A stretch of DNA of 32,000 bases from Candidatus Electrothrix sp. GW3-4 (GCF_037902255.1 NZ_CP147990.1:3960001-3992000), one strand, 5' to 3'. Shown: positions 8,701-27,031, numbered from the stretch's first letter. The notes: generated by a model not told the origin, from the sequence alone. Program-made: numbers and translations.

Positions 8701-8985
8701 ATGAATACTAAATTGAATTGCTGGGAATTTAAAAAATGTGGAAGAGAGCCAGGAGGAAGGAATGTTACACGATATGGGCTTTGTTCAGTACCCGTAGAGA
8801 TAGATTGTGACGGTCTTAATGGCGGAAAAAATGGCGGACGATCCTGTTGGTTATGGCGAGAAGTCGCTTGTGGAAAAATCATGAAGAAATCCTCTGTGCA
8901 GAGGATTAGAGAATGTCGTGAATGTAATTTTTACATTTCAGTCAAAAAAAACAGGGTAACGGAGCTATGCGCGAAAATTTTTTGA
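8701..8985 (+). CDS. Small Cys-rich protein with two Cys-Trp motifs ('two-CW'-like), copy 1
   Basis: MNTKLNCWEFKKCGREPGG...GKNGGRSCWLW...CRECNFY. An AGGTG sequence lies 7 nt upstream of the ATG. It is a paralogue of the next ORF with the same Cys/Trp spacing. Confidence 0.7.
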   Translation: MNTKLNCWEFKKCGREPGGRNVTRYGLCSVPVEIDCDGLNGGKNGGRSCWLWREVACGKIMKKSSVQRIRECRECNFYISVKKNRVTELCAKIF

Positions 8986-9248
8986 ATTGTTGGGAGGTAA
9001 AGGATTGCGGAAGAGAACCAAACGGAAAAAATGTCCCTTTACATGGTGTTTGTCCGGTTTCGGTTGATTTTCTTGTGGATGGTATTCATAATGGAAAAAA
9101 TGGAGGGCGCTGTTGCTGGGCTTTTGCTCCTGGCGTCACAAAAGAGAGTTATGACATCTCCAGTTACTATGAAAAGGCGCTAGGATGCCTTGGGTGTGAA
9201 TTCTACAAATCAGTTAAAGATACAACTGTATTGCTTGTTCGATTATAA
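8967..9248 (+). CDS. Small Cys-rich protein with two Cys-Trp motifs ('two-CW'-like), copy 2
   Basis: MRENFLNCWEVKDCGREPNG...GKNGGRCCWAF...CLGCEFY. A GGAG sequence lies just upstream of the ATG. It overlaps copy 1 by 19 nt. Confidence 0.7.
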   Translation: MRENFLNCWEVKDCGREPNGKNVPLHGVCPVSVDFLVDGIHNGKNGGRCCWAFAPGVTKESYDISSYYEKALGCLGCEFYKSVKDTTVLLVRL

Positions 9249-9380: not shown

Positions 9381-9439
9381 GTGATGATGTTACCCCTCCG
9401 TTCCAACACCGGTCAAGTTCACAACTTTTCTTCTCTTAT

Positions 9440-10045
9440 TCATTTTTCTATAAACTGCCTGGATTCTATAGCTCTTGAGAGCGTATGTTCGTCTGCATAC
9501 TTGATGTCCATCCCCATAGGTATACCGCAGGCAAGGCGGGTCACCTTGACCGGCAAACCCGACAAATGATCAATCAGGTAGGAGGCAGTAGCTTCGCCCG
9601 GTACTGTGGAGCTGGTCGCGATCAGAATCTCCTCAATCCCCTGGCTTCGTACCCGCTGAAAGAGCTCACGAATCTTGAGCTCATCCGGTCCGATGCCCTC
9701 CATAGGAGCCAAAACCCCGTGGAGAATATGGTACACCCCGCGAAAGGCACCGGTTTTTTCAATGGCCAGCAGATCACCGGGTTCCTCCACCACGCAAACC
9801 AAGCGGTTATTGCGGCGGGCATCCTCACAGATACGACAGGGATCGTTCTCGGAAAAGGCAAAACAACGGCTGCAAAGCTGAATAGATGAATGGAGCTCAG
9901 CCAGACTTGCTGAGAGATTGAGGGCCTCGGCAGGAGGACGGCGCAGGAGGTAGAGAGCAAGTCGGGAGGCGGTCTTCTGACCGATACCCGGCAACCGGGT
10001 CAGATCGCTCATCAGCCGTTCCAGTGCCGGGGGAACAACCTGCAT
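9440..10045 (-). CDS. recR: Recombination protein RecR
   Basis: N-terminal helix-hairpin-helix LPGIGQKTASRLALYLL, a C4 zinc finger (CSRCFAFSENDPCRIC) and a Toprim region. It sits in the conserved dnaX-ybaB-recR order. Confidence 0.95.
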   Translation of the reverse strand: MQVVPPALERLMSDLTRLPGIGQKTASRLALYLLRRPPAEALNLSASLAELHSSIQLCSRCFAFSENDPCRICEDARRNNRLVCVVEEPGDLLAIEKTGAFRGVYHILHGVLAPMEGIGPDELKIRELFQRVRSQGIEEILIATSSTVPGEATASYLIDHLSGLPVKVTRLACGIPMGMDIKYADEHTLSRAIESRQFIEK

Positions 10046-10051
10046 GGTCGC

Positions 10052-10360
10052 TTAGGACAGGCCCGGAATATTGAGGCCTCCGGTCAGCTTGGACATCTCG
10101 CCCTTGCCCATTTCAGCTGCCTTACGGGCACCATCGTTAACCGCAGCAACAATCAGGTCCTGAAGCATATCCATCTCATCAACGTTCACGATCCCAGGTT
10201 CAATGGTAAGGCCGACCAGCTCGCCCCGACCGTTCATGGTGGTCGTGACCATGCCCCCGCCCGCAGAGCCGGTAACGGTTTTGGTCGCCAACTCCTCCTG
10301 CATATCTCCCATTTTTTTCTGGAATTCCTTTGCCTGCTGCATCATATCTGAAATATTCAT
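10052..10360 (-). CDS. ybaB: Nucleoid-associated protein YbaB/EbfC
   Basis: MNISDMMQQAKEFQKKMGDMQEEL...GGGMV is typical YbaB. I chose the internal ATG at 10360 rather than the ORF-track start at 10399 because that is where the family-typical N-terminus begins. Confidence 0.9.
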   Translation of the reverse strand: MNISDMMQQAKEFQKKMGDMQEELATKTVTGSAGGGMVTTTMNGRGELVGLTIEPGIVNVDEMDMLQDLIVAAVNDGARKAAEMGKGEMSKLTGGLNIPGLS

Positions 10361-10439
10361 ATCATTCTCTATAGTATTTTCAAATGAACAAGGAAGCACA
10401 TTGCCTCTTCTCTTTGGGCAGTATAATCATTTTTTCGGA

Positions 10440-12308
10440 TTATTCGTCAACCTTTTCCTGAGGCAAAGCCCCACGAAAACGCGGTCCAACCCGAATATCG
10501 CCAACTTGGCCGCTAAAGATATCCACAGCAGCCAACACGAGCGAATCATTCGCCAATTTCTGACGTTCCTGCCGCACCGCGGCTGCACTGTCCGGATCTG
10601 TGGCACAGGCCGAAGAGTTCGGCACCTTAAAGGTCACCTCCAGCTCCTCCTGAAAAAAATCCATGGCAAACTCGGTCAACTGAACAAGATTTTCTTTGCT
10701 TCCAAGGAGCTTACAATCCGCTGATTCATCATAGTTCACGGTCAGAACACCGTTTTCCAGACGGGCTGAAGAGGAACTTTTCAGGGCAGCCCCCATCCAG
10801 GTTACCCGTTCCTGCACATAGTCGACAAACGCTGGCCAATGCTTGCGCACATCTTTTTTCTGTACACGGGATAAGGCCGGGACATCTCCGTCTTGCGCTG
10901 AAGGAGGATACTGTGCTGATGCTTCGGGCGGTTCTGGTTCTGGCGGGCGCAGTTCTTCCACAGGGGGAGGCCCTTGCGGAGGAGGTGCTACCAATTCAGG
11001 ATCTTTTTTTTTTTCGGCCTCGGCAGGAGGTACCGGCTGTGCAGACGAAGGAGGAGGTGACTTTGTCGATCCCTTGCCCTGCTCCGCCTGCGGAACCTGC
11101 TGACGTATCTGCGACGGCTGCTGTGACGGAATCGTTTGCCCGTCCCCCTGTTGTTGCGGCAGGGCTACTCCAGCCAACACATCGTCCAAGCGGGTGAGCA
11201 GGTCCGTCACCGGCACCACCTCCCCCACCTGCACGGCCCGAATAAAGGTCATCTCCACAGCGAAACGGGGACGTGAGGAGAAAGCGGCCTTTTCTAACCC
11301 CTCCAGCAGGAGATTGAACATCATGAACAGGGTTTGGGAGGAATGGGCCGCTGCGACCTCCTGCAAAAGAGCGAGTTCATCCGCAGGGAGATCAAGGAGG
11401 CGGGCCGGGTCCTGACTGACACTGCACACCACAAGGCTGCGAAACCAGGCCAGCAGCTCATTGATAAAGCGTTTGATGTCCATGCCGTAGTTGTAGACCT
11501 TATCCAGATTGCTCAGGGCAGCGCTCAGGTCTTTGCTCAAGAGGGCACGGGCAAGATCAGCTATCACCTCGTGACTAACCAGCCCCAGCACGTCAGCCAC
11601 CTCTTCACCAGTGACGTTCTCGCCGCAATAGGAAAAGACCTGGTCCAGCAGGCTAAGGCCATCGCGCACCGAACCGCCTGCCTCCCGCACCACCATATTC
11701 AAGGCAGACTCATCAATGCTGATCCCTTCCTGTTCGGCTAAAGAGGCAAAATGGGCCGCCAACTCGGCATGGGCGACCCGCTTGAGCTCGTAGCGCTGAC
11801 AGCGGGAAAGGATGGTCACCGGCACCTTGTGCAATTCCGTGGTGGCAAACATAAAGTAGACATGCTCGGGCGGCTCCTCAAGGGTCTTGAGCAAGGCATT
11901 AAAGGCCTCGGTGGTGAGCATGTGGACTTCATCAATGATGATGATCTTAAACTTGGAGCTGGTGGGCATAAAACGGATATTTTCCTTCAGCTCCCGGATC
12001 TCCTGAATACCCCGGTTGGAGGCACCATCTACCTCGTGCAGATCAACGGAACTGCCTGCCATGATCTCCTTGCAGGAACGGCATTCGTTGCAGGGTTCAG
12101 GTGGTTCTCCCTTTTCGCAATTCAGGGCCTTGGCCATGATGCGGGCAAGGGTGGTTTTACCGGTACCGCGCACCCCGCTGAAGATCAGGGCATGGGGCAC
12201 CCGGTTCTGTACTAATCCGTTTTGCAGGGTACGGACAACGGCTTTCTGGCCGACCACCTGAGCAAAGGTCTGGGGTCGGGATTTTCTGGCGAGGACGAGG
12301 TAAGACAC
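10440..12308 (-). CDS. dnaX: DNA polymerase III subunit gamma/tau
   Basis: GTG start. Clamp-loader AAA+ motifs are present: GVRGTGKTT, the zinc module CNECRSCKE, DEVHML and SRCQ. A Pro/Gln-rich linker and a tau C-terminal domain follow. Confidence 0.95.
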   Translation of the reverse strand: MSYLVLARKSRPQTFAQVVGQKAVVRTLQNGLVQNRVPHALIFSGVRGTGKTTLARIMAKALNCEKGEPPEPCNECRSCKEIMAGSSVDLHEVDGASNRGIQEIRELKENIRFMPTSSKFKIIIIDEVHMLTTEAFNALLKTLEEPPEHVYFMFATTELHKVPVTILSRCQRYELKRVAHAELAAHFASLAEQEGISIDESALNMVVREAGGSVRDGLSLLDQVFSYCGENVTGEEVADVLGLVSHEVIADLARALLSKDLSAALSNLDKVYNYGMDIKRFINELLAWFRSLVVCSVSQDPARLLDLPADELALLQEVAAAHSSQTLFMMFNLLLEGLEKAAFSSRPRFAVEMTFIRAVQVGEVVPVTDLLTRLDDVLAGVALPQQQGDGQTIPSQQPSQIRQQVPQAEQGKGSTKSPPPSSAQPVPPAEAEKKKDPELVAPPPQGPPPVEELRPPEPEPPEASAQYPPSAQDGDVPALSRVQKKDVRKHWPAFVDYVQERVTWMGAALKSSSSARLENGVLTVNYDESADCKLLGSKENLVQLTEFAMDFFQEELEVTFKVPNSSACATDPDSAAAVRQERQKLANDSLVLAAVDIFSGQVGDIRVGPRFRGALPQEKVDE

Positions 12309-12310
12309 GG
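12214..12310 (-). repeat. dnaX 5'-end repeat, copy A (the functional gene start)
   Basis: First ~32 codons of dnaX, with the GTG at 12308. This is the reference copy for copies B and C. Confidence 0.9.
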
Positions 12311-12413
12311 GATTTCAGGTTAAAGGTTCAAACGATGTGTTTATGTATTCTGTAGATGGCAGGCTGCGGATTACACAGCAACACAGCCTCTTCAGTCTTC
12401 CGTTATGATCAAA

Positions 12414-12749
12414 TCAGGAAAGAATGAGCAGCATGGAGAGCACCCCGAGCAATGTCCCGAGAGCCTGACGTATGCCAAAGGGTTCATTCCAAAAAAACGT
12501 ACCTCCTAAGATCACCAGCAACATGCAGGCAATGGTATTCACCGGGCTTGCCAAGCTGACAGGAAAGTATCGAAGCGCGACCGAGTACAGCGCCAGAGCA
12601 AGGCCGTATACCACAACGCTGCTCCCCATTGTCAGCAACCATGCCGTACTTTTCCACTCTTTCAAGGCGGCCTGCTTCAGCAGGAGCTGAGCAACGGTGG
12701 AAAAAATCACCGGGGCGAAGAGAATCAGATATTTTTTCAACGGACTCAC
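12414..12749 (-). CDS. Small four-helix membrane protein, SMR/EamA (ArnE-like) superfamily
   Basis: 111 aa and strongly hydrophobic, with four predicted TM segments. AGGAGG lies 5 nt upstream of the GTG start. That GTG overlaps (GTGA) the stop of the dnaX' leader ORF in copy B. Confidence 0.6.
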   Translation of the reverse strand: MSPLKKYLILFAPVIFSTVAQLLLKQAALKEWKSTAWLLTMGSSVVVYGLALALYSVALRYFPVSLASPVNTIACMLLVILGGTFFWNEPFGIRQALGTLLGVLSMLLILS

Positions 12750-12779
12750 TGTTCCTCCTGATTGTTCTTACTCTGCTCT

Positions 12780-12876
12780 AACCTATTTTGCAGGGTACGG
12801 GCAATGGGTTTCTGGCCGACCACCTGGGCAAAGGTCTGGGGTCGGGATTTTCTGGCGAGGACGAGGTAGGACACGG
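12780..12876 (-). repeat. dnaX 5'-end repeat, copy B (dnaX' remnant, 41-codon ORF)
   Basis: By hand alignment there are about 8 mismatches over 97 nt versus copy A. It translates (GTG at 12874) to VSYLVLARKSRPQTFAQVVGQKPIARTLQN..., against MSYLVLARKSRPQTFAQVVGQKAVVRTLQN for dnaX. Confidence 0.9.
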
Positions 12877-12893
12877 CAGCTTCTTTTTATTCC

Positions 12894-13805
12894 CTATTTT
12901 TTACGATGGATATCATCATGACAAACAGTGCAGAGCGTGACAAGATTGTCTTCTGTATTTCCTCCGCCTGTTGCATGTGTTTTTTGGTGATGGAGTTCCA
13001 AATGACGTGGGTCGGACCGGTTCCATTCCTCATGTGACCATGCGCAGACAGTGCATTTATAATCGTCTCGCCGCAGGACATTGCGTTGAACAGGATCGGG
13101 AATACGGCGGTCATGTTCAGGACTTTGGCGATCAGCTTCCAGCAGATAAACTCCGACCTCAAGGTCGGGGCGTCCTGTATTTTTAGTAACAATCGGCCAG
13201 CCGTACTCGGTGCGTAGCTCCCTCACTCTTCTTGCCCACTCCGACTTGTCCCTGGCAAGATACTTCAATTCCTCGCCGGTTATTTTCTGACCGATATTCG
13301 TCCTGAAATACTTCAACAGTCTATCACGAACAGAAATATTTTCCCTGCGTATCTCGTTCGCTACATTCCAGCGATGAGCAGCATCCCTATCCTGCTCATC
13401 GGAAAGCAATATATAGTCCGAAGTCCCCATCGCTGCTGCATCAATATCTACAAGAGGAAACTCATTTTCTTCCGCCATCTGCGTAGCTGTCAGGCCGCTC
13501 GCTATCGACCAGCCGAATTGGACTCTCAACTCACGTATCCTCCGAGCATATTCCTGAATGCCCGAGACAACAAGCAGTTCATCTCCGCTGATGATCACTC
13601 CTTGGTATTTCAAGAAATAATGCAGTATCCTGTCGCGGGCACTGCGGGCCTCTTCAGCAGGAATGAGGGATTTCCCCAGGTCGCGCAACTGATGATAGCA
13701 TGGAACAAGGGAAAGTACCTTCTGCCGCAAATTATCAGAGCACAATTCTTCTTCAAAATCTATCAACAACTCCAGCAGCTGTTTTCGTATCGCTTCCGCT
13801 TTCAT
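12894..13805 (-). CDS. HNH-family endonuclease; probable type II restriction enzyme partner of the adjacent methyltransferase
   Basis: C-terminal HNH motif CTVCAW...HLELHHQKTHATGGGNTEDNLVTLCTVCHDDIH. Two internal ~50-aa repeats (RDRILHYF...ARRIRELRVQFGWSI and RDRLLKYF...ARRVRELRTEYGWPI) lie N-terminal to it. It overlaps the dcm gene by 4 nt. Confidence 0.8.
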   Translation of the reverse strand: MKAEAIRKQLLELLIDFEEELCSDNLRQKVLSLVPCYHQLRDLGKSLIPAEEARSARDRILHYFLKYQGVIISGDELLVVSGIQEYARRIRELRVQFGWSIASGLTATQMAEENEFPLVDIDAAAMGTSDYILLSDEQDRDAAHRWNVANEIRRENISVRDRLLKYFRTNIGQKITGEELKYLARDKSEWARRVRELRTEYGWPIVTKNTGRPDLEVGVYLLEADRQSPEHDRRIPDPVQRNVLRRDDYKCTVCAWSHEEWNRSDPRHLELHHQKTHATGGGNTEDNLVTLCTVCHDDIHRKK

Positions 13806-15010
13806 GTATCACCCCTGCTGTCCAGTAATACCCTGACTATATCAGCCACCCTTGCCGCAAGCAGAGGGGGAACAGCGTTACCGATCTGTTTAGCAATTTC
13901 AATTTTCGACCCGGTAAAACGAAAGCTGTCCGGAAAACTTTGAAACCGTGCTGCTTCCCTATGAGTGATCGGACGATGCTGCTCCGGGTGCAGGTAACGA
14001 CCTTTTTCCGGCTTAAAAAACTCTGTCCGTATCGTCACCGAGGGCCGGTCCCACCAGAGCCGACCGAATAGATCTGTACCGCCGGATTTCTTTCTGATCC
14101 AGCATTTCGGAGTTAATTCGGGAGCGACTCGCTGCAAATCAAAGCGGTTCATTCCCTCCTGCGGAATAGCCCTGTATCTTTTTCGGCTGAGTTCGGTAGG
14201 ATTTCTTCCGAAATGCAAATTAAGCGGCGGAGCTGTTTCTCTGATTTCCGTCCCTTCAGGCGGAGGAAGGTCCTTAATCGCATCTCGTACCGTTTTCCAA
14301 TGTTGAGGAGAAGATAAAAACTCCTGCTTCTCAAACGGCAGCAACAGCTGCTTGCTCTTTCCGTTCGGGTTGCAATGCGTTTTTCTCGGAGGAAAGAGCA
14401 TTGAGGGATCTGCAAAAGTACAGCCGATGATAAACGCCCTGGTACGAGTCTGTGGAACACCGTAGTCGGCAGCTATCAGCTTCTCCTGATAGACTTTAAA
14501 GCCAAGGGCTTGCGCCATCCCGACAATTTCCCCATGTTCAAAGGTACCAAGCAGTTGCGGTACGTTTTCCATAACAAATACTGAAGCCCCGCATTGCTCA
14601 ACAACTTTCAGGAAAGGACGCCAGAGTTCCTTCCGAGGGTCCTCAGCGCGTTTCTTATTCAACAGACTGAAGCCTTGGCAGGGAGGGCCTCCTATCACCA
14701 CGTCGGCACGGGGAATCCTGATCTGATTGTCTTTCAGTATTTCCGCAAGATCACCGGCAACACAGTGCGGACCGAAGTTCTCATTATATGTATCAACACA
14801 AAACTGATTACAGTCATTCGCCCAAACCGATTGAAAGGGCTGTCCAAAGGACTCGGAAAACCCTAATGACATGCCGCCAGCTCCGGCAAAGAGATCAATC
14901 AGCCGGTAACGCTGCGGGGTTTCTTTGAGCAAGGCACCGGAACAGCGCGTTCCATAGGAACGTTGGTCTTCGCGTAACAGCAGCATACTCTTCATGTGGT
15001 CAGAACTCAT
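13802..15010 (-). CDS. dcm: DNA (cytosine-5)-methyltransferase
   Basis: Canonical C5-MTase motifs are present: DLFAGAGGMSLGF (I), GGPPCQGFS (IV), ENV (VI), QTRTRAFIIG (VIII) and GNAVPP (X). Confidence 0.95.
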   Translation of the reverse strand: MSSDHMKSMLLLREDQRSYGTRCSGALLKETPQRYRLIDLFAGAGGMSLGFSESFGQPFQSVWANDCNQFCVDTYNENFGPHCVAGDLAEILKDNQIRIPRADVVIGGPPCQGFSLLNKKRAEDPRKELWRPFLKVVEQCGASVFVMENVPQLLGTFEHGEIVGMAQALGFKVYQEKLIAADYGVPQTRTRAFIIGCTFADPSMLFPPRKTHCNPNGKSKQLLLPFEKQEFLSSPQHWKTVRDAIKDLPPPEGTEIRETAPPLNLHFGRNPTELSRKRYRAIPQEGMNRFDLQRVAPELTPKCWIRKKSGGTDLFGRLWWDRPSVTIRTEFFKPEKGRYLHPEQHRPITHREAARFQSFPDSFRFTGSKIEIAKQIGNAVPPLLAARVADIVRVLLDSRGDT

Positions 15011-15066
15011 AAGCCGTTTTGCAAGGTTCGGACAACGGCTTTCTGGCTAGGATGAGGTAGGACACG
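15011..15066 (-). repeat. dnaX 5'-end repeat, copy C (internally deleted dnaX' remnant, 21-codon ORF)
   Basis: GTG at 15065 gives VSYLILARK... It matches copy A on both sides of a ~41-nt internal deletion lying between the two (c/t)tttctgg repeats. The remnant ORF overlaps the dcm ATG. Confidence 0.8.
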
Positions 15067-15077
15067 TTTTTTCCTGC

Positions 15078-15742
15078 TTAATTTTTGAAGGATTGTGCTG
15101 TTTGAGCACCAGAGCAAACCAGCTCATCAATAATCTCCTTGGTTCTCCGCAAAACAGCAGCTATCTGCATAATCTCCGCCTCTTTTGTCGCATCATAGGC
15201 CAGACTTTCCGCATAGACTTTCCCATCAAGGAGGACAAAGACCAATGCCGACCGATAATATAGGCCCCGTACACAGGCTGCGCACGAGCATTTGCAGCTT
15301 GGGCCGCGACCATCTCCGCCAGCAGCTGTCCCAGCGGATCATTGGAACTATCCCTCTCCTTTTTATATTCATGGAGAAAAAAGAAGGGCTGCTTTGGAGC
15401 ATGCCTGCCCGAGGCAACAAGAAAGCCAACAATGCCCCACAGTCGCTTCCCGTCTGCATATTCAACGCTCAACTCGCGCTCAAGAAAAGGGCGATACGAA
15501 GACTGATAAAAGTTCACCATATTGAGGAGCGAGGCAATAAAATAGACCTTCAGTTCCTCCTCATTCCAGTCATGCACATGGGCCAATAGCGTCTGCGAGA
15601 GACTGAGAAGCGTCTGTTGTTCACTGTCAGTAAAGGACGGAGACACGGCAAGCCATTCCTGGAGCAATTCGTACTGCCGATCAGCAGTTAGACTGAACTC
15701 GTCTTCAATCTCTTCTTTTGTCCATTGCGAAAAAGGTTTCAT
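15078..15742 (-). pseudogene. HsdR-N-terminal-like (PD-(D/E)xK fold) protein, frameshifted near 15240
   Basis: The region WNEEELKVYFIASLL...GIVGFLVASG...PFFFLHEYKKE...DPLGQLL resembles the type I R-subunit N-terminal domain family. After ...GRHW the annotated frame becomes low-complexity (SLSSLMGKSMRKVW...). The frame reached by restoring one base reads FVLLDGKVYAESLAYDATKEAEIMQIAAVLRRTKEIIDELV... and runs to a TAA at 15078. Confidence 0.55.
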
Positions 15743-15848
15743 ACGTTGTACTCCTGACGAGAAGTTTCTTCCGCATGTTCAGATTGCCCCTGAATGTTTT
15801 ACCAGCGCAACAGACCGACAACACACGATTTACGAAAAATATCCCTTG

Positions 15849-15908
15849 AAAATGCTATGATTACATGCCCGTCACAAAATGCTATGATTACATGCCCGTC
15901 ACAAAATG
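15849..15908. repeat. Tandem 27-bp direct repeat (two perfect copies plus a 6-nt start of a third)
   Basis: aaaatgctatgattacatgcccgtcac occurs at 15849-15875 and is repeated exactly at 15876-15902. The next unit begins aaaatg and then diverges. Confidence 0.9.
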
Positions 15909-16415: not shown

Positions 16416-16437
16416 TGCTCAGTCACTTTATTCTTCT

Positions 16438-16536
16438 GGCTCCCAAGCTCCAGCTTGGGAGACCTTATTCCTGAAGCTCTGCTTCTTGTATGAAGCGGAG
16501 CTTAACGGTGTCTGTGCTCGAGCAGAACTTGGGCAC
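16438..16536 (+). repeat. ~100-nt structured intergenic repeat, copy 1 (terminal inverted repeats plus internal hairpins)
   Basis: ggctcccaagctccagcttgggag...gaagctctgcttc-ttgtat-gaagcggagctta...cttgggcac. About 12 differences from copy 2 by hand alignment. Confidence 0.85.
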
Positions 16537-16543
16537 TAGAAAT

Positions 16544-16741
16544 CTACTGATTCAATTCAGGACAGGAACTCTGTCGATGAGCTTTGTTCATGAGCTTGGG
16601 TCTCAGCCTAGTCAGTCTGTCACCTACCTTTTGCTGATGGGACTTATACTCTTCGCAAATGGCATCAAGATCATAACCGAATTTCTTGGAATGCTCGTTT
16701 CGATATTGTCGTATTTCGTCTATAATCGGATCTTTCATCAT
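16544..16741 (-). CDS. Small conserved hypothetical protein (DPIIDEIRxxRxEH family), paralogue of 18163..18351
   Basis: MMKDPIIDEIRQYRNEHSKKFGYDLDAICEEY... aligns with MIDDPIVEEIRRFRREHAAEYGNNLQRIVEAL... It is flanked on both sides by the ~100-nt repeat. Confidence 0.55.
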   Translation of the reverse strand: MMKDPIIDEIRQYRNEHSKKFGYDLDAICEEYKSHQQKVGDRLTRLRPKLMNKAHRQSSCPELNQ

Positions 16742-16790
16742 TCATCACCTAGCAGTTCTTGAGGAGAGCATATTTCAGGGCAGTTGTTCT

Positions 16791-16890
16791 GGCTCCCAAG
16801 CTCCAGCTTGGGAGCACGTATTTCTGAAGCTTTGCTTCTTGTTTGAAGCGGAGCTTCACGGTGTCTGTGCGCAAGCAGAGCTTGGGTGCC
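16791..16890 (+). repeat. ~100-nt structured intergenic repeat, copy 2
   Basis: ggctcccaagctccagcttgggag...tgaagctttgcttc-ttgttt-gaagcggagcttca...gagcttgggtgcc. The ends GGCTCCCAAGCTC and GAGCTTGGGTGCC form a 13-nt inverted repeat with one mismatch. Confidence 0.85.
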
Positions 16891-18162: not shown

Positions 18163-18351
18163 TCATCTCCGGGCCTCCTTCCTCAACCCCTTCTCAGCCA
18201 ACCGCTTCGGCCCCGGATTCAACCACACCCGATCAGACAGCCGCTCTTTCTCCCGCAATGCCTCGACAATACGCTGAAGATTATTCCCATATTCAGCCGC
18301 ATGTTCTCTGCGGAAACGACGTATCTCTTCAACAATCGGATCATCAATCAT
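18163..18351 (-). CDS. Small conserved hypothetical protein (DPIVEEIRxxRxEH family), paralogue of 16544..16741
   Basis: The N-terminal ~35 aa align with the 16544..16741 product. Confidence 0.55.
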   Translation of the reverse strand: MIDDPIVEEIRRFRREHAAEYGNNLQRIVEALREKERLSDRVWLNPGPKRLAEKGLRKEARR

Positions 18352-18525: not shown

Positions 18526-18822
18526 ATGAAAAACTCCCTTGATGCTGTCAAACATCTCCTGGCCGAGCAAAAATCCCTGCTGAAAAACAAATACAGAATC
18601 AGCAGACTCGGCATATTTGGCTCGTATATCCGAGGAGAGCAGCGCAGTGGAAGCGATGTGGATGTCCTGATTGACTACGACAAAGCTCCCAGTCTTATCG
18701 AGCTGATCGAAATCGAAAATATGTTGAGCGATCTGCTCGGCCTGAAGGTTGATCTTGTCACCAGCAGAGGGCTGAAACCACAGCTCCGTCAACACATCCT
18801 TGATGAGGTCGTCTATCTGTGA
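18526..18822 (+). CDS. mntA: Nucleotidyltransferase-domain antitoxin (MNT/MntA)
   Basis: Minimal nucleotidyltransferase (NTase) motif GIFGSYIRGEQRSGSDVDVLIDY. Its stop overlaps the GTG start of the HepT gene (GTGA). Confidence 0.9.
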   Translation: MKNSLDAVKHLLAEQKSLLKNKYRISRLGIFGSYIRGEQRSGSDVDVLIDYDKAPSLIELIEIENMLSDLLGLKVDLVTSRGLKPQLRQHILDEVVYL

Positions 18823-19211
18823 GCAGTCGTATTGTCTCTCATTTTCTCGCCGATATCCTTGCTGCCATCAACGCAATTGCTCGATTCACCGAGCAAATGG
18901 ATTTCGAGCAGTTCCGGCGTGACGAAAAAACAATCCGCGCTGTTGAACGGGAACTTGAAATCATCGGCGAAGCGGTGAAAAAGATTCCCGAGCACATTAC
19001 CGCAGCACATCCCTCTGTTCCCTGGCGGGCAATAGCAGGAATGCGGGATCGTCTGATTCATCAGTACTGGGACACGGAAGCGGCAATCCTCTGGAGCACT
19101 GTGGAAGATTCACTGCCGGAGCTGAAAACAGAAATAATTGCGATCATCGAAGAAGAAAAGATCGACAAGCCGCAAACTCCCGATGCTCAAGGTTGCCCTC
19201 CGTCCACCTGA
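18819..19211 (+). CDS. hepT: HEPN-domain toxin (DUF86/HepT)
   Basis: HEPN Rx4-6H motif in RDRLIHQYWDTE. Its size and pairing with an MNT gene are typical. Confidence 0.9.
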   Translation: MSSRIVSHFLADILAAINAIARFTEQMDFEQFRRDEKTIRAVERELEIIGEAVKKIPEHITAAHPSVPWRAIAGMRDRLIHQYWDTEAAILWSTVEDSLPELKTEIIAIIEEEKIDKPQTPDAQGCPPST

Positions 19212-21444: not shown

Positions 21445-21625
21445 GGCTATTTCTCCCTGATCATGTTGATGAAATATAAATCACGTAGAGAACAGAGTAC
21501 CATCTCTGCAAAATTTTGTCTCGCCTGTTAAAGCTCTTTACTGGTGATGAAGTTGGAAGATCCGCTGAAAAGCGGTTCGCGTGAAGGGAAAAGACGATGA
21601 GAAGAAAAAAACTGCAATAAAAAAA

Positions 21626-21720
21626 GCCGGGCAACCCTGCAACACACAAAGGGACTCGCTGCCGCTGCTTCCTCCCGGACCTGACGGAGTTCACGATTCT
21701 TTGTTGTGCAGGACCCGGCT
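21626..21720 (-). ncRNA. ffs: Signal recognition particle RNA (4.5S-type SRP RNA)
   Basis: The minus strand reads AGCCGGGUCCUGCA...CCGUCAGGUCCGGGAGGAAGCAGCGGCAG...UGCAGGGUUGCCCGGCU followed by U7. It contains the conserved domain IV sequence GUCAGGUCC-GGGA-GGAAGCAGC with a GNRA tetraloop, and the 5' and 3' ends pair. Ends are accurate to roughly 5 nt. Confidence 0.85.
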
Positions 21721-21746: not shown

Positions 21747-21832
21747 TGGCGGAGAGGGTGAGATTCGAACTCACGGTACTTGCGTACACACGCGTTCCAG
21801 GCGTGCACCTTAAGCCACTCGGTCACCTCTCC
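21747..21832 (-). tRNA. tRNA-Ser (anticodon GGA), CCA encoded
   Basis: The minus strand GGAGAGGUGACCGAGUGGCUUAAGGUGCACGCCUGGAACGCGUG-UGUACGCAAGUACC-GUGAGUUCGAAUCUCACCCUCUCCGCCA folds as a cloverleaf. It has a 7-bp acceptor stem, the anticodon loop CU-GGA-AC, a long variable arm and a GTTCGAATC T-loop. Confidence 0.95.
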
Positions 21833-24126: not shown

Positions 24127-24810
24127 TTACGATACAATATCTTCAACCTGTTGAATAAAATTCTGCAGGCTATGCAGGCAATTTGGATCTGACTTTATCC
24201 TGCTGCGCAACTCATCAATATAATAGGATTCCGTAACCCCCCTTGGCTCGGATTTGCGGTAGGAAGAGGTTATTTTTTTCTCACGCAACATGGTTTTTAA
24301 GTAATGGAAATGATAATCACCGATTGATCCGCTATATCCTTGAGGTTGTCTCATCTTTTCAGGATCGTTTTGAGCCGTATTATAGTGACCGGTAAAAGCG
24401 GAAACTTCAGCAGAAGAAGGGTTTCGTGCGTAAATACGGCGGTTGCCGAGAAACCATGTCTCCATGCAGACAACCTGCGGCAGGATGACAACTTCACAGT
24501 TATTGAAGACAACATTATGATCAATGATGAATTCTTCGACTTCTTTCACTTTCTCCGTTGCCGAAACATCATCAGTATCAATCGCCAGAACAAAATAGTC
24601 AAATTTTCCCGAAGCATTCACATCAGCAGCAGAATCAACAAGATGATTATCAAGGATACTTGGAAAGCCGCCGCCGCTGATCAAATAGTAGTTATCCGCG
24701 AGAACATCAGAGGGAAAATCAACCCGTTTCAGCTGAGGCGCAAGATATGCCAGCCATTTCGGATACACCTTCCGCTCGGTTTTTCCCTCCACCAAAAAAT
24801 AGACATTCAC
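24127..24810 (-). CDS. Toprim-like protein (DUF4276 / RloB / AriB-like), putative nuclease effector
   Basis: The N-terminal MNVYFLVEGKTE supplies the Toprim Glu, and a later FVLAIDTDD supplies DxD. It overlaps the upstream ATPase gene by 4 nt. The gene is AT-rich. Confidence 0.65.
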   Translation of the reverse strand: MNVYFLVEGKTERKVYPKWLAYLAPQLKRVDFPSDVLADNYYLISGGGFPSILDNHLVDSAADVNASGKFDYFVLAIDTDDVSATEKVKEVEEFIIDHNVVFNNCEVVILPQVVCMETWFLGNRRIYARNPSSAEVSAFTGHYNTAQNDPEKMRQPQGYSGSIGDYHFHYLKTMLREKKITSSYRKSEPRGVTESYYIDELRSRIKSDPNCLHSLQNFIQQVEDIVS

Positions 24811-25913
24811 GACTCCACTCCTTCGGAGTAGATATCAAGATTGATTAATTGGGTAAAGGCTTGATGCTTTGATTTATCGAAATGAAACTCGGCAGCATCG
24901 CGGGCGGTCACTACACTGCCTTTTCTGGTAACGATCTTCCAGTTTGTATGATTGATGTTGTTGATTATATACGGATGATGACTTGTAATAATAAACTGAA
25001 GCCCTCTTTCAGAAGAAAGAATACTACTGGTCAGTTCGTCAATGCAGTTTATGCCAAGGCTGTTTTCAAATTCATCTATTAAGATCAGGCTGGAATCTGC
25101 GCATAAATGAAGCTGCGCTATATGAAGCAGCGTCTTGAGCATACCTGATGATATGTTAGAAATCCAATCAGCTACGCCCATTTCTTTAATTTGAATCTCA
25201 AGAGTAAAATGTTTTACAGCAGTTTCTATTGAAAACGGCACAGGTTCAATTCGCACTTCTTCAACAGAAGGAAAAATATCAATAAAACTGTTTACGATGC
25301 TGTCAAACAGTTGTCTTTCTTTCTTGCAGGCAAAATACAATTTCTCATCAAGAGGTATTGGGAGGTTGCGAACTTCGCCTATCCCAGAATATTTATTTAT
25401 ATCTTTGTCAAAAGACGAAGAGAAAGATGCCTTTATATCCATAACAGGAAATATGATTTTTTCAAATTCCTTTGCTGCTTCCTTTATTTGCTCTTCTTCC
25501 CTGAGTAGATACAATATACTTTGATCATTAGAAAGTTTTACTGTTTTTTTATTATTAAACAATATCCCGTTACGATCTCTCGTTACGATCAGCTCATTTT
25601 CCCTCTTAACCGATTCAGTTATGATAGATATCCCACTTGTATGATTTTCATCATTTTTAAACGAAACGTCAGTATCTTCAAATTCCCCCTCCCATGTATA
25701 CAGAGTTCCGCCTGATGATAAAAATTCAATATACCACTTAACACCTTTTAACGATTCCCCTTTTACTATCCTTTTTAAATCAAGAATTGAGTTCAATATA
25801 CGCGTCTTGCCCACTCCAGATGCCCCGACAAGCAACGTGAGCTGATCAAGGGACAGGGGTTGAAGCTCCCAGCCCGTTGTTCTGTCAGCAAAAAAAAATG
25901 TTTGTATCCGCAT
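24807..25913 (-). CDS. ABC/AAA_21-type ATPase, partner of the Toprim protein
   Basis: Walker A GASGVGKT, a signature-like SSGMLKTL, Walker B LILIDEFENSLG and an H-loop ITSHHP. The gene is AT-rich. Confidence 0.8.
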   Translation of the reverse strand: MRIQTFFFADRTTGWELQPLSLDQLTLLVGASGVGKTRILNSILDLKRIVKGESLKGVKWYIEFLSSGGTLYTWEGEFEDTDVSFKNDENHTSGISIITESVKRENELIVTRDRNGILFNNKKTVKLSNDQSILYLLREEEQIKEAAKEFEKIIFPVMDIKASFSSSFDKDINKYSGIGEVRNLPIPLDEKLYFACKKERQLFDSIVNSFIDIFPSVEEVRIEPVPFSIETAVKHFTLEIQIKEMGVADWISNISSGMLKTLLHIAQLHLCADSSLILIDEFENSLGINCIDELTSSILSSERGLQFIITSHHPYIINNINHTNWKIVTRKGSVVTARDAAEFHFDKSKHQAFTQLINLDIYSEGVES

Positions 25914-26008: not shown

Positions 26009-27031
26009 TTAACCCAAACCAGTACGTGATGTAATCTCTTCTATCTGTTGAATAAAATTCTTTTCATTCACAAAGCTCACATCATACATGCTCGTCAACC
26101 CTTGGCTCTGTTTGTCACTCAACCCCACAGCACAAATCAGAAACTGGCCGTCATCAAGCTTCAGGCGTTTCTTCAAGACGGAGTATTTCTCAATATCCTT
26201 GCGAAATTCTCCGGTCTTGCACTCAATGCATAGCGGTATGGTACCGTTGATAAGAAAAAATACATCAAGTTCATGCTGGTCTTCGTTTTGAAAAATCACA
26301 GAGAGATTACGAAGACAGGCAACAGGAATGTCCTTTTCACGGAAAAAATCCAACAGCTTCATAAAGACAAACCACTCCATCCATTCTCCGTTAAAGAAGT
26401 TCACTATTTTAGGCGCAGTTTGCAGCGTCAACCGAACGATCTTTTCCTGCTTTTGATAAAAATATTTGGCAACAAACGAGTAGTCATACAAATCCTTGCA
26501 GAATTGAGTTATGACCTTAATATCTTTTTGGCTTTTTTTATTGAGTGTGAGTTTAACCGTTGTATACCCTTTCCGCTGGATGTATTTAATTTTATCACTT
26601 ACAAGCCTGAGCGTGTCATAATGATCTCCCAGCTGCACTGCAACCTCATCGAAAAAACCGGTGGTATCAAGAGCCTGCTGGTTAACATTAACCTGAACAT
26701 GACGCTCTTGAAAAAACTTCACTATCGGTTCATATTGCTGTTTGCTTTTAAGCTCAGCAGTATTGTAAATATCAACCTCAGATAAAGATTGAAGCGACTC
26801 ATTTTCTTCTGGGGTTGATGCATCCTGAGATGCTTGTGGATCAACCTGACTGCGTAATTGCTGCAACTCTTTTTTCTGAGCCACAAACTGTTCAATAACC
26901 TTTGTAACAAAGGCGACGGTATCATAAATGGGACTCGGTGTTTTGCAGTGAGGACATTTTACAGATTTCCCCTGATAATCATTAGAAACTTCCCGAAGAT
27001 GTCCACATTTGCTACACCGAAAGAGGGCCAT
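26009..27031 (-). CDS. Zn-ribbon protein with a C-terminal PD-(D/E)xK nuclease domain (Card1/DUF1887-like)
   Basis: The N-terminus is CSKCGH...CPHCKT. The C-terminus GEWMEWFVFMKLL...HELDVFFLINGTIPLCIECKTGEF fits the E...D...ExK restriction-endonuclease-like core. The ~200-aa middle region is unrecognised. Confidence 0.6.
   Translation of the reverse strand: MALFRCSKCGHLREVSNDYQGKSVKCPHCKTPSPIYDTVAFVTKVIEQFVAQKKELQQLRSQVDPQASQDASTPEENESLQSLSEVDIYNTAELKSKQQYEPIVKFFQERHVQVNVNQQALDTTGFFDEVAVQLGDHYDTLRLVSDKIKYIQRKGYTTVKLTLNKKSQKDIKVITQFCKDLYDYSFVAKYFYQKQEKIVRLTLQTAPKIVNFFNGEWMEWFVFMKLLDFFREKDIPVACLRNLSVIFQNEDQHELDVFFLINGTIPLCIECKTGEFRKDIEKYSVLKKRLKLDDGQFLICAVGLSDKQSQGLTSMYDVSFVNEKNFIQQIEEITSRTGLG

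Follow-up and report, generated by a model that had tools for sequence, protein, structure and literature searches.

Copies of the dnaX 5' end flank cargo cassettes upstream of dnaX in the cable bacterium Candidatus Electrothrix sp. GW3-4

A 32,000-nt stretch of the genome of the cable bacterium Candidatus Electrothrix sp. GW3-4 (GCF_037902255.1 NZ_CP147990.1:3960001-3992000; the whole stretch is called the window, and all coordinates are positions in it) contains the first 96 nt (32 codons) of dnaX three times, in direct orientation on the minus strand. One copy (A) is the start of the working gene and the other two (B and C) are displaced fragments, or stubs, lying upstream of it. The gene for an EamA-family membrane protein sits between copies A and B, and the genes for a cytosine methyltransferase (Dcm) and an HNH endonuclease sit between B and C. 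On balance, the explanation we lean toward is that rare illegitimate insertions with long target duplication took place at a defence hotspot, and that their products were then spread, homogenised and sometimes deleted by homologous recombination, with the stub serving as a homology arm. The features of the array, including the open reading frames (ORFs) of the stubs, are as follows.

10440-12308, minus strand: dnaX (DNA polymerase III tau/gamma), 622 aa, GTG start at 12308; Pfam DNA_pol3_delta2 5e-46 and DNA_pol3_gamma3 9e-26
12213-12308, minus strand: copy A, the functional dnaX start; nt 1-96 are the repeated unit
12309-12413, minus strand: spacer and 5' untranslated region (5'UTR) before dnaX, unrelated to the sequence before B and C
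12414-12749, minus strand: cargo 2, EamA-family (SMR-like) four-helix membrane protein, 111 aa, GTG start; Pfam EamA 4e-8
12746-12874, minus strand: copy B ORF, 42 codons, its TGA overlapping the GTG of the EamA gene (GTGA)
12772-12876, minus strand: copy B, displaced fragment (extent of homology), 8/96 mismatches to copy A
12894-13805, minus strand: cargo 1b, HNH endonuclease, 303 aa, putative restriction partner; Pfam HNH 2.5e-6, PADLOC REase_II 1e-12
13802-15010, minus strand: cargo 1a, C5 cytosine DNA methyltransferase (Dcm), 402 aa; Pfam DNA_methylase 1.6e-57
15065-15000, minus strand: copy C ORF, 21 codons, overlapping the dcm ATG at 15010 by 11 nt
15010-15066, minus strand: copy C, displaced fragment, retaining dnaX nt 1-26 and 67-96

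Structure of the array

The three direct copies had been noticed in an earlier sequence-only reading of this DNA. Alignment confirms them at these places, and two sub-patterns of the 96-nt unit each give three matches in the window and none in 100 shuffles. Homology begins at C-GTG in 3/3 copies, and an intact dnaX start is always regenerated beside the gene body, as that reading had it. Copy C carries an internal deletion of 40 nt (not ~41, as first estimated) exactly between two GCCAGAAA repeats, which is a typical slippage deletion. The 21-codon ORF of copy C that runs over the dcm ATG was correctly described. The ORF of copy B does end in a TGA overlapping the GTG of the next gene, but it has 42 codons rather than 41, and the AGGAGG ends 4 nt before the GTG. 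No inverted repeat was found within or at the dnaX copies of the window. The last ~12 nt of the spacer before dnaX resemble the dnaX UTR of a related locus (L005).

The presence of a Dcm and HNH pair between B and C is supported by Pfam for both proteins and by PADLOC for HNH. The label "SMR-like" given earlier to the 12414-12749 protein is approximately right: the EamA profile matches and the Multi_Drug_Res profile stays below its cutoff. The HNH protein consists of two winged-helix-like repeats followed by a C-terminal HNH domain, the dcm stop overlaps the start of the HNH gene, and the unit from copy C to copy B measures 2.19 kb. Because all genes of the array are co-oriented and tightly packed, it is probably read as one operon ending in dnaX-ybaB-recR. 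Promoter and terminator scans of the array were uninformative, and no strong terminator was detected inside it.

States of the locus in related genomes

The locus was compared with 80 related loci (designated by L numbers), each searched with the window copy and with its own dnaX start, and with metagenomes. Extra dnaX 5' copies among the 80 loci were found only in L002 and L013, and later also in L087. States with one, two and three copies and with different cargo, which had been predicted for relatives, were found: one copy in L083 and in the outgroup L006, among others, two in L013, and three in the window, L087 and L002. In L006 the RNA gene ffs is followed after 210 nt by dnaX, with no insertion. 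L003 (E. gigas) and L094/L095 have ffs, a spacer, Dcm and a restriction (R) gene before dnaX but no dnaX 5' fragment (dnaX') copy, and their dcm starts with CTGTGAGT. L004/L082 have Dcm, then a second Dcm with HEF_HK and receiver proteins up to the dnaX start codon, and L001 has Dcm, then a PD-(D/E)xK-like protein up to the start codon; no copy is present in either. In L013 (E. marina), the order is a 761-aa gene, an intact 96-nt copy, Dcm, HNH and dnaX. L002 has a copy, Dcm, a truncated HNH, a partial copy (nt 11-72), an Mrr-like nuclease with a DUF4276-like protein, and dnaX. The distal copy is thus intact at 96 nt in both L013 and L002, and three copies with EamA as the second cargo are found in the window and L087. 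Two short loci show further forms. Of copy B, L092 (522 nt) retains no more than the last ~17 nt, next to the EamA gene. L083 (1166 nt) has no Dcm; the ~25-nt UTR that stands before copy C in the window and L002 leads straight into an intact dnaX there, and an antitoxin gene lies upstream.

Wider searches added little. A metagenome pattern scan returned three short contigs only and no further lineage. A protein search with the dnaX' leader ORF returned only the window, E. scaldis and fragmented dnaX calls, among which the call in L100 resembles a frameshifted long-read assembly. The 42-aa product of the copy B ORF and the methyltransferase both match annotated proteins of Ca. Electrothrix sp. 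GW3-4, whereas an exact look-up of the DnaX protein of the window gave no match. The dnaX' pattern was absent from two viral-contig scans, and plasmid and phage BLAST gave no match to the array, the Dcm gene alone having two distant plasmid matches.

An assembly artefact, in which repeats were misjoined or collapsed, had been raised as a way in which the array could prove unreal, and it now appears exceedingly improbable. Short-read contigs (Logan) from two runs, 100% identical to window 12839-15878, do end inside copy B, but breaking there is what repeats make assemblers do. The same three-copy array is present in Ca. Electrothrix scaldis (L087), whose genome was closed from native long and short reads (PMC10926707). 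Its order is a 219-aa gene, C, Dcm, HNH', B, EamA and dnaX. Its copy C has the same 40-nt deletion, its HNH gene a 460-nt deletion and its copy B a 9-nt in-frame insertion, and its EamA protein is 100% identical. Related arrays in L002 and L013 come from separate studies, and copies that differ by 8% and by a 40-nt deletion are not assembler inventions. No description of this locus was found in the E. scaldis genome paper (PMC10926707).

Descent of the methyltransferase and of the copies

The locus had been read as a series of cassettes inserted into the 5' end of dnaX. As far as Dcm is concerned, a recent arrival does not agree with the relatives. The Dcm tree is congruent with the dnaX tree, (window, L087), L002 / L003 / (L004, L013, ...), and Dcm lies upstream of dnaX in every marine Electrothrix relative examined. 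The congruence places Dcm at this site before these species split, and L003, L004 and L094 have Dcm without a dnaX' copy.

Copy C, the oldest displaced dnaX fragment, arose once, since its junction with Dcm, GGATTA/TGAGT (the slash marks the join), is identical in four genomes, creating ATGA in L013 and L002, and since both intact distal copies have a T at nt 36, which 0/11 functional copies have. Upstream of the distal copy, L013 and the window/L002 group have different sequences as far as the GTG; unlike upstream sequence behind a shared stub is the pattern expected if the stub served as a homology arm. The distal copy differs from the functional copy of its own genome at 7-8 positions and from the other distal copy at 11, and 9/11 of the differences between the orthologous distal copies are synonymous. 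The similarity of copies within a genome points to gene conversion with the selected dnaX copy, and the mosaic, concerted pattern is of the kind that the stub and a functional dnaX 5' end yield when they recombine. Copy B and its UTR are orthologous to the functional dnaX start and UTR of L013 and L081, and copy A, with another UTR, now heads dnaX. A GCC-GTT allele was considered as a marker of stub-to-gene conversion and was dropped, being polymorphic among functional copies.

Junctions and the search for a recombinase

Although homology does start at the GTG in all copies, a precise recombination site at that point is not needed. Just before the GTG, the 20-30 nt of sequence are of several unrelated types, which track the upstream gene: one follows HNH (window B, L013, L081), another follows the PD-(D/E)xK-like gene (window C, L002 distal, L083) and a third follows EamA (window A, L087). 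Homology starts at the start codon because the 5'UTRs of the lineages, donor and recipient, are unrelated; any recombination of dnaX between lineages with their own UTRs shows homology from the start codon, without a precise cut. At the other end, the gene-internal limits of the stubs differ, lying at nt 96 (Dcm), ~105 (EamA) and ~53-72 (L002), which argues against one fixed crossover point.

Within the clade the dnaX start is GTG, TTG or ATG interchangeably (starts in L001-L007), and it is preceded by an A-rich leader only, with no recognisable Shine-Dalgarno (SD) sequence (window 12309-12330; starts in L001-L007). The dnaX gene of the window likewise has no obvious SD sequence. Genes upstream of dnaX in the clade frequently stop 3-50 nt before the start codon.

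Site-specific integration is a different way to arrive at such repeats. Small integrase-less units, resembling cis-mobilizable elements (CIMEs) or integron cassettes, would carry an att site mimicking dnaX codons 1-32, and a tyrosine or serine recombinase encoded elsewhere would insert them at ~codon 32, like the dusA-type islands. The repeats have the same orientation and the same first base, and three different cargos are found at one site. The working 5' end adjoins the newest cargo and the original is displaced upstream, as dusA islands produce (PMC4482086). Synonymous conservation is somewhat raised in codons 1-32 (0.84 identical codons vs 0.74 in the next ones). Yet a domain search found no integrase or transposase in any sizeable ORF of the 32-kb window, in agreement with the sequence-only reading, none stands beside the array in L002, L013 or L087, and no common motif was found on the cargo side of the junctions. 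Furthermore, the inner stub ends lie tens of nucleotides apart, Dcm is vertically inherited and occupies the same place without a stub in relatives, and no dnaX mimic was found on viral, plasmid or phage sequences. The phenomenon is also limited to three or four close relatives among the 80 loci and the metagenomes. We consider site-specific integration unlikely. A strongly constrained RNA or recombination element within codons 1-32 was also entertained and dropped, the conservation there being only mildly raised.

Reading frames of the stubs

The stubs had been proposed to act as leader peptides that couple translation into the cargo. The features of the array do not establish this: the EamA gene has a strong SD sequence of its own (AGGAGG), dcm has none whether or not a leader is present, and open frames of this kind are what descent, with a few codons free of stops by chance, would leave. 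Coupling by the stubs is, as far as the sequence goes, possible but not needed.

In its adaptive form, the proposal would have translated dnaX' stubs drive or tune the translation of dcm and EamA through stop/start overlap, tying the cargo to the dnaX operon. Several features fit. In every genome the reading frame of the stub closes at the cargo start codon or shortly beyond it: stop and start form ATGA in L013 and L002 and GTGA in the window and in L087, and window C has an overlap of 11 nt. The ORF of copy B in L087 is kept despite the 9-nt in-frame insertion, the differences among distal stubs are mostly synonymous, and the array has no strong terminator within it. The lack of an SD sequence before dcm also fits, but it is shared by the leaderless L003, L004 and L094. 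In the window and L087 the 40-nt frameshifting deletion destroys the peptide, and L092 keeps the EamA gene with nearly all of copy B gone. The 8-12 extra open codons are expected by chance about half the time, and gene conversion from the working dnaX would account for the synonymous bias just as well. It is therefore improbable that the stubs were captured as adaptive leaders.

A model for the accumulation of cassettes

The insertion reading that we favour can be set out as a sequence of steps. Incoming DNA with the structure cargo, own UTR, dnaX 5' end and onward would have entered on at least two, and probably three, occasions. Its left end would have been joined illegitimately 50-105 nt inside the resident dnaX and its right end would have recombined homologously with the dnaX body. 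Such a route would be homology-facilitated illegitimate recombination (HFIR), equivalent to an insertion that leaves a "long target duplication", or some other illegitimate event. Because dnaX is essential, only products with a complete dnaX would survive; in these, the imported 5' end would take over as the working dnaX start, and the resident one would be left upstream as a stub (first C, later B).

Once the stub-cargo-dnaX stage is reached, the stub would provide a ready left homology arm and the dnaX body the other. The cassette could then enter other, naive lineages by a plain double crossover without an integrase, acquiring the UTR of the recipient. Gene conversion could make it partly uniform with the working gene, and deletion between repeats could remove it. 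The same recombination would account for the independent HNH truncations in L002 and L087. In support of these steps, a donor-like form (the L003/L094 type) and a recipient-like form (the L083 type) both exist. The right side of the insertion is continuous dnaX homology, and the left Dcm junction shows 1 nt of possible microhomology between L003/L094 (the dcm start given above) and dnaX (GGATTATTG).

Five points weigh against this model: i) the single nucleotide of microhomology is compatible with HFIR but is not diagnostic, and it gives no positive signature; ii) it is a coincidence that two or three independent illegitimate junctions all lie no farther than ~105 nt into dnaX, and the clustering calls for a local break hotspot or for selection under which short stubs are tolerated and longer ones are perhaps toxic; iii) the postulated donor, in which EamA would lie immediately before dnaX without stub B, was not found among the loci of EamA homologues; iv) the polarity could be the reverse, with stub C ancestral and lost in L003/L004/L094; and v) L083 is only 1166 nt long and need not be a naive site, since deletion between repeats or even a collapsed assembly could have given the same form.

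A purely local origin, by a tandem duplication ending inside dnaX followed by replacement or decay of cargo without foreign DNA, would give direct repeats in tandem register as observed, and recombination between such repeats clearly occurs, as the mosaic copies and the HNH deletions demonstrate. The segments between the copies, however, share no homology with each other, and the sequences just upstream of the copies are unrelated. The cargo differs in sister genomes (EamA vs Mrr-like/DUF4276-like), and EamA homologues are normally found at other loci, after a DEAD helicase or in glycosyltransferase clusters, not at dnaX. A local origin thus seems very unlikely.

The insertion model can also be pushed further. 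The stub and the dnaX body would then be portable homology arms with which defence and other cassettes hop between cable-bacterium lineages by homologous recombination, stacking up like an integron but without an integrase ahead of an essential gene that could not be lost along with them, and the start codon and ORF of the stub would serve each new cargo as a translated leader within the dnaX operon; alternatively, an undiscovered recombinase would target dnaX codon ~32. We regard this extension as possible but doubtful.

Variation in the cargo genes

The restriction side of the Dcm unit is variable. The HNH gene is truncated independently in L002 (3117-3380) and L087 (~9404-9847) next to an intact methyltransferase gene, which is decay toward an orphan methylase. 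The downstream partner of Dcm also varies among Electrothrix lineages: Dcm may be followed by HNH, by an unrelated protein of 311 aa, by a PD-(D/E)xK-like protein, or by a second Dcm with a HEF_HK ATPase and a receiver-domain protein (variants at L094 8727-9662, L001 ~880-1760 and L004 3981-9957). This is allelic substitution of the restriction partner between two fixed arms, Dcm and dnaX.

The methyltransferase family is unusually conserved across distant taxa, with 75-83% aa identity in Desulfuromonas, Desulfobacterales, Bacteroidales and Ignavibacteria and 3822 matches below 1e-100. Outside Electrothrix the arrangement is Dcm-Vsr-HNH, and the Electrothrix versions are without Vsr. Loci of the family in other phyla (L096, L097) have no flanking direct repeats; they are Dcm-Vsr-HNH, once beside an integrase.

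The ffs-dnaX interval and neighbouring genes

The array is part of a longer variable interval, with these genes at its borders and next to copy C:

9440-10045, minus strand: recR (Pfam), conserved operon partner 3' of dnaX
10052-10399, minus strand: ybaB (Pfam), conserved operon partner 3' of dnaX
15078-15742, minus strand: PD-(D/E)xK-like gene, frameshifted, 193 aa with a 55-aa tail ORF; PADLOC PD_DExK 2e-12
21622-21720, minus strand: signal recognition particle (SRP) RNA gene ffs (Rfam)
21747-21832, minus strand: tRNA-Ser (ARAGORN)

The array is preceded upstream by tadA, tRNA-Ser and ffs, of which ffs and tRNA-Ser form the conserved distal border of the interval. The gap between ffs and dnaX is 9.3 kb in the window, as against the 210 nt of the outgroup. 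It is filled by the two cassettes, the frameshifted PD-(D/E)xK-like gene, unknowns, a SAP-domain protein, an MNT/HepT toxin-antitoxin pair (at 18526-19211) and an SPFH protein. From these contents and the short outgroup gap, the interval between ffs and the dnaX start in marine Ca. Electrothrix is a gene-flux hotspot, mostly of defence genes.

The PD-(D/E)xK-like gene is whole in L002 and L087, where it encodes 221 and 219 aa, respectively, and split in the window, so it is probably a pseudogene in the window strain. Its 3' end and the next ~25 nt are the UTR before copy C, which is common to L083. Upstream of this gene lies a perfect 27-nt tandem duplication (AAAATGCTATGATTACATGCCCGTCAC twice, 15849-15902) that overlaps a promoter-like match and is single-copy in L002. 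Farther on, direct repeats of 103 nt, 89% identical, occur at 16431-16533 and 16784-16886, both with the palindrome GCTCCCAAGCTCCAGCTTGGGAGC. They enclose an ORF of 65 aa at 16544-16741; a paralogue of it, 62 aa long, lies at 18163-18351. Copies of the 103-nt element are also present between ffs and dcm in L003 (7732-7819) and L087 (6405-6515), and it looks like a dispersed element of Electrothrix of the repetitive extragenic palindrome (REP) or miniature inverted-repeat transposable element (MITE) type.

Past tadA, two more defence-type loci are found: a DUF4276 protein and AAA_21 ATPase pair (24127-25913) and a protein with a Card1-like endonuclease domain (26009-27031). L013 is without the ArsR/permease and DUF4276/AAA_21 part and has a 333-aa protein in that position, between darP and tadA. 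The tadA-ffs block may have a variable region on either side. At the other end of the locus, just past recR, two adjacent paralogous cysteine-rich ORFs of ~94 aa (8701-8985 and 8967-9248) have the N-terminal motifs CWEFKKCGREPGG and CWEVKDCGREPNG, respectively, and no Pfam match.

Comparison with known systems

For a specialist, the locus is a neat and moderately surprising case and not a new principle. Through the intermediates kept in relatives, it shows a way for genes to build up directly at an essential replication gene's start codon with no dedicated recombinase involved. It also shows how the duplicated target can afterwards be used as a homology arm when cassettes spread, undergo gene conversion or are lost. 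It also points to ffs-dnaX as a defence hotspot in cable bacteria, which are not yet in pure culture and whose mechanisms of gene flow are little known. If the stubs were translated leaders, an essential gene would also have had its expression signals put to new use.

Insertion of restriction-modification (R-M) units with long target duplication was reportedly described by Nobusato et al. in 2000. The sequence-only reading had drawn this parallel, correctly (PMC2853133). Furuta, Abe & Kobayashi (2010, PMC2853133) recognise such insertions by the presence of R and M genes inside, a length of <20 kb, no mobility genes, direct repeats of >30 bp, and a related genome with a single repeat and no insert. 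The Dcm-HNH unit has R and M (Pfam, PADLOC), whereas the second cassette, with its EamA transporter, does not. At 2.19 kb the unit is well under the length limit, there are no mobility genes in the window, and its direct repeat is a 96-nt unit, intact in L013/L002 and with the 40-nt deletion in the window. The repeat is found once without an insert in L083, which at only ~1.2 kb is possibly a secondary deletion or a collapsed assembly, and the outgroups have ffs followed by dnaX. The likeness extends to an R and M pair of ~2.2 kb, repeats above 30 bp that may be a single-copy target in related genomes, the lack of a linked transposase or integrase, and repeats that can mediate later amplification or loss. 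In contrast to the known cases, the target is the first 32 codons of an essential gene, with one repeat functional and the other a short ORF; the events are serial (two stubs); the second cargo is not R-M; and the R-M unit is old and vertically inherited in the genus.

Islands at dusA (Farrugia et al. 2015, PMC4482086) encode a tyrosine integrase of their own and excise as circles; their att core is semi-conserved, 21 bp long and found at one position. As in the dnaX array, the 5' end of a protein gene is targeted, the element brings a new 5' end with it, and the former one remains as a remnant upstream (PMC4482086). Unlike these islands, the dnaX array has no cognate integrase in the window or beside the array in L002, L013 and L087, and the stubs, ending at nt 96, ~105 and ~53-72, give no fixed att-core position.

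The orphan arrays at type VI secretion system (T6SS) effector-immunity, Rhs and contact-dependent inhibition (CDI) loci have been attributed to sequential displacement by HFIR (Kirchberger et al. 2017, PMC5361080). They share with the dnaX array serial accretion by a conserved anchor gene, displacement of older modules together with fragments of the anchor gene, the lack of an integrase, and a proposed pair of one homologous and one illegitimate junction. The geometry differs: in those arrays the anchor is the 5' part of the gene and the orphans lie downstream, whereas here the anchor is the gene body and the stubs lie upstream of the start codon. The cargo there consists of toxin-immunity pairs, and here of defence and transport genes.

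Integron cassette arrays are similar in that co-oriented, promoterless, tightly packed cassettes have a repeated element between them and the newest lies by a fixed point. Unlike integrons, the dnaX array has no IntI, attI or Pc, its repeat is a gene fragment without the imperfect palindrome of attC, and there are only two cassettes.

The dnaX array is thus of a kind already known. The "long target duplication" of the Kobayashi type is extended here in three ways, namely a coding 5' end of an essential gene as the target, serial insertion, and cargo other than R-M, and the variant is set apart as well by the comparative evidence for the stub as a recombination arm and by its occurrence in cable bacteria.

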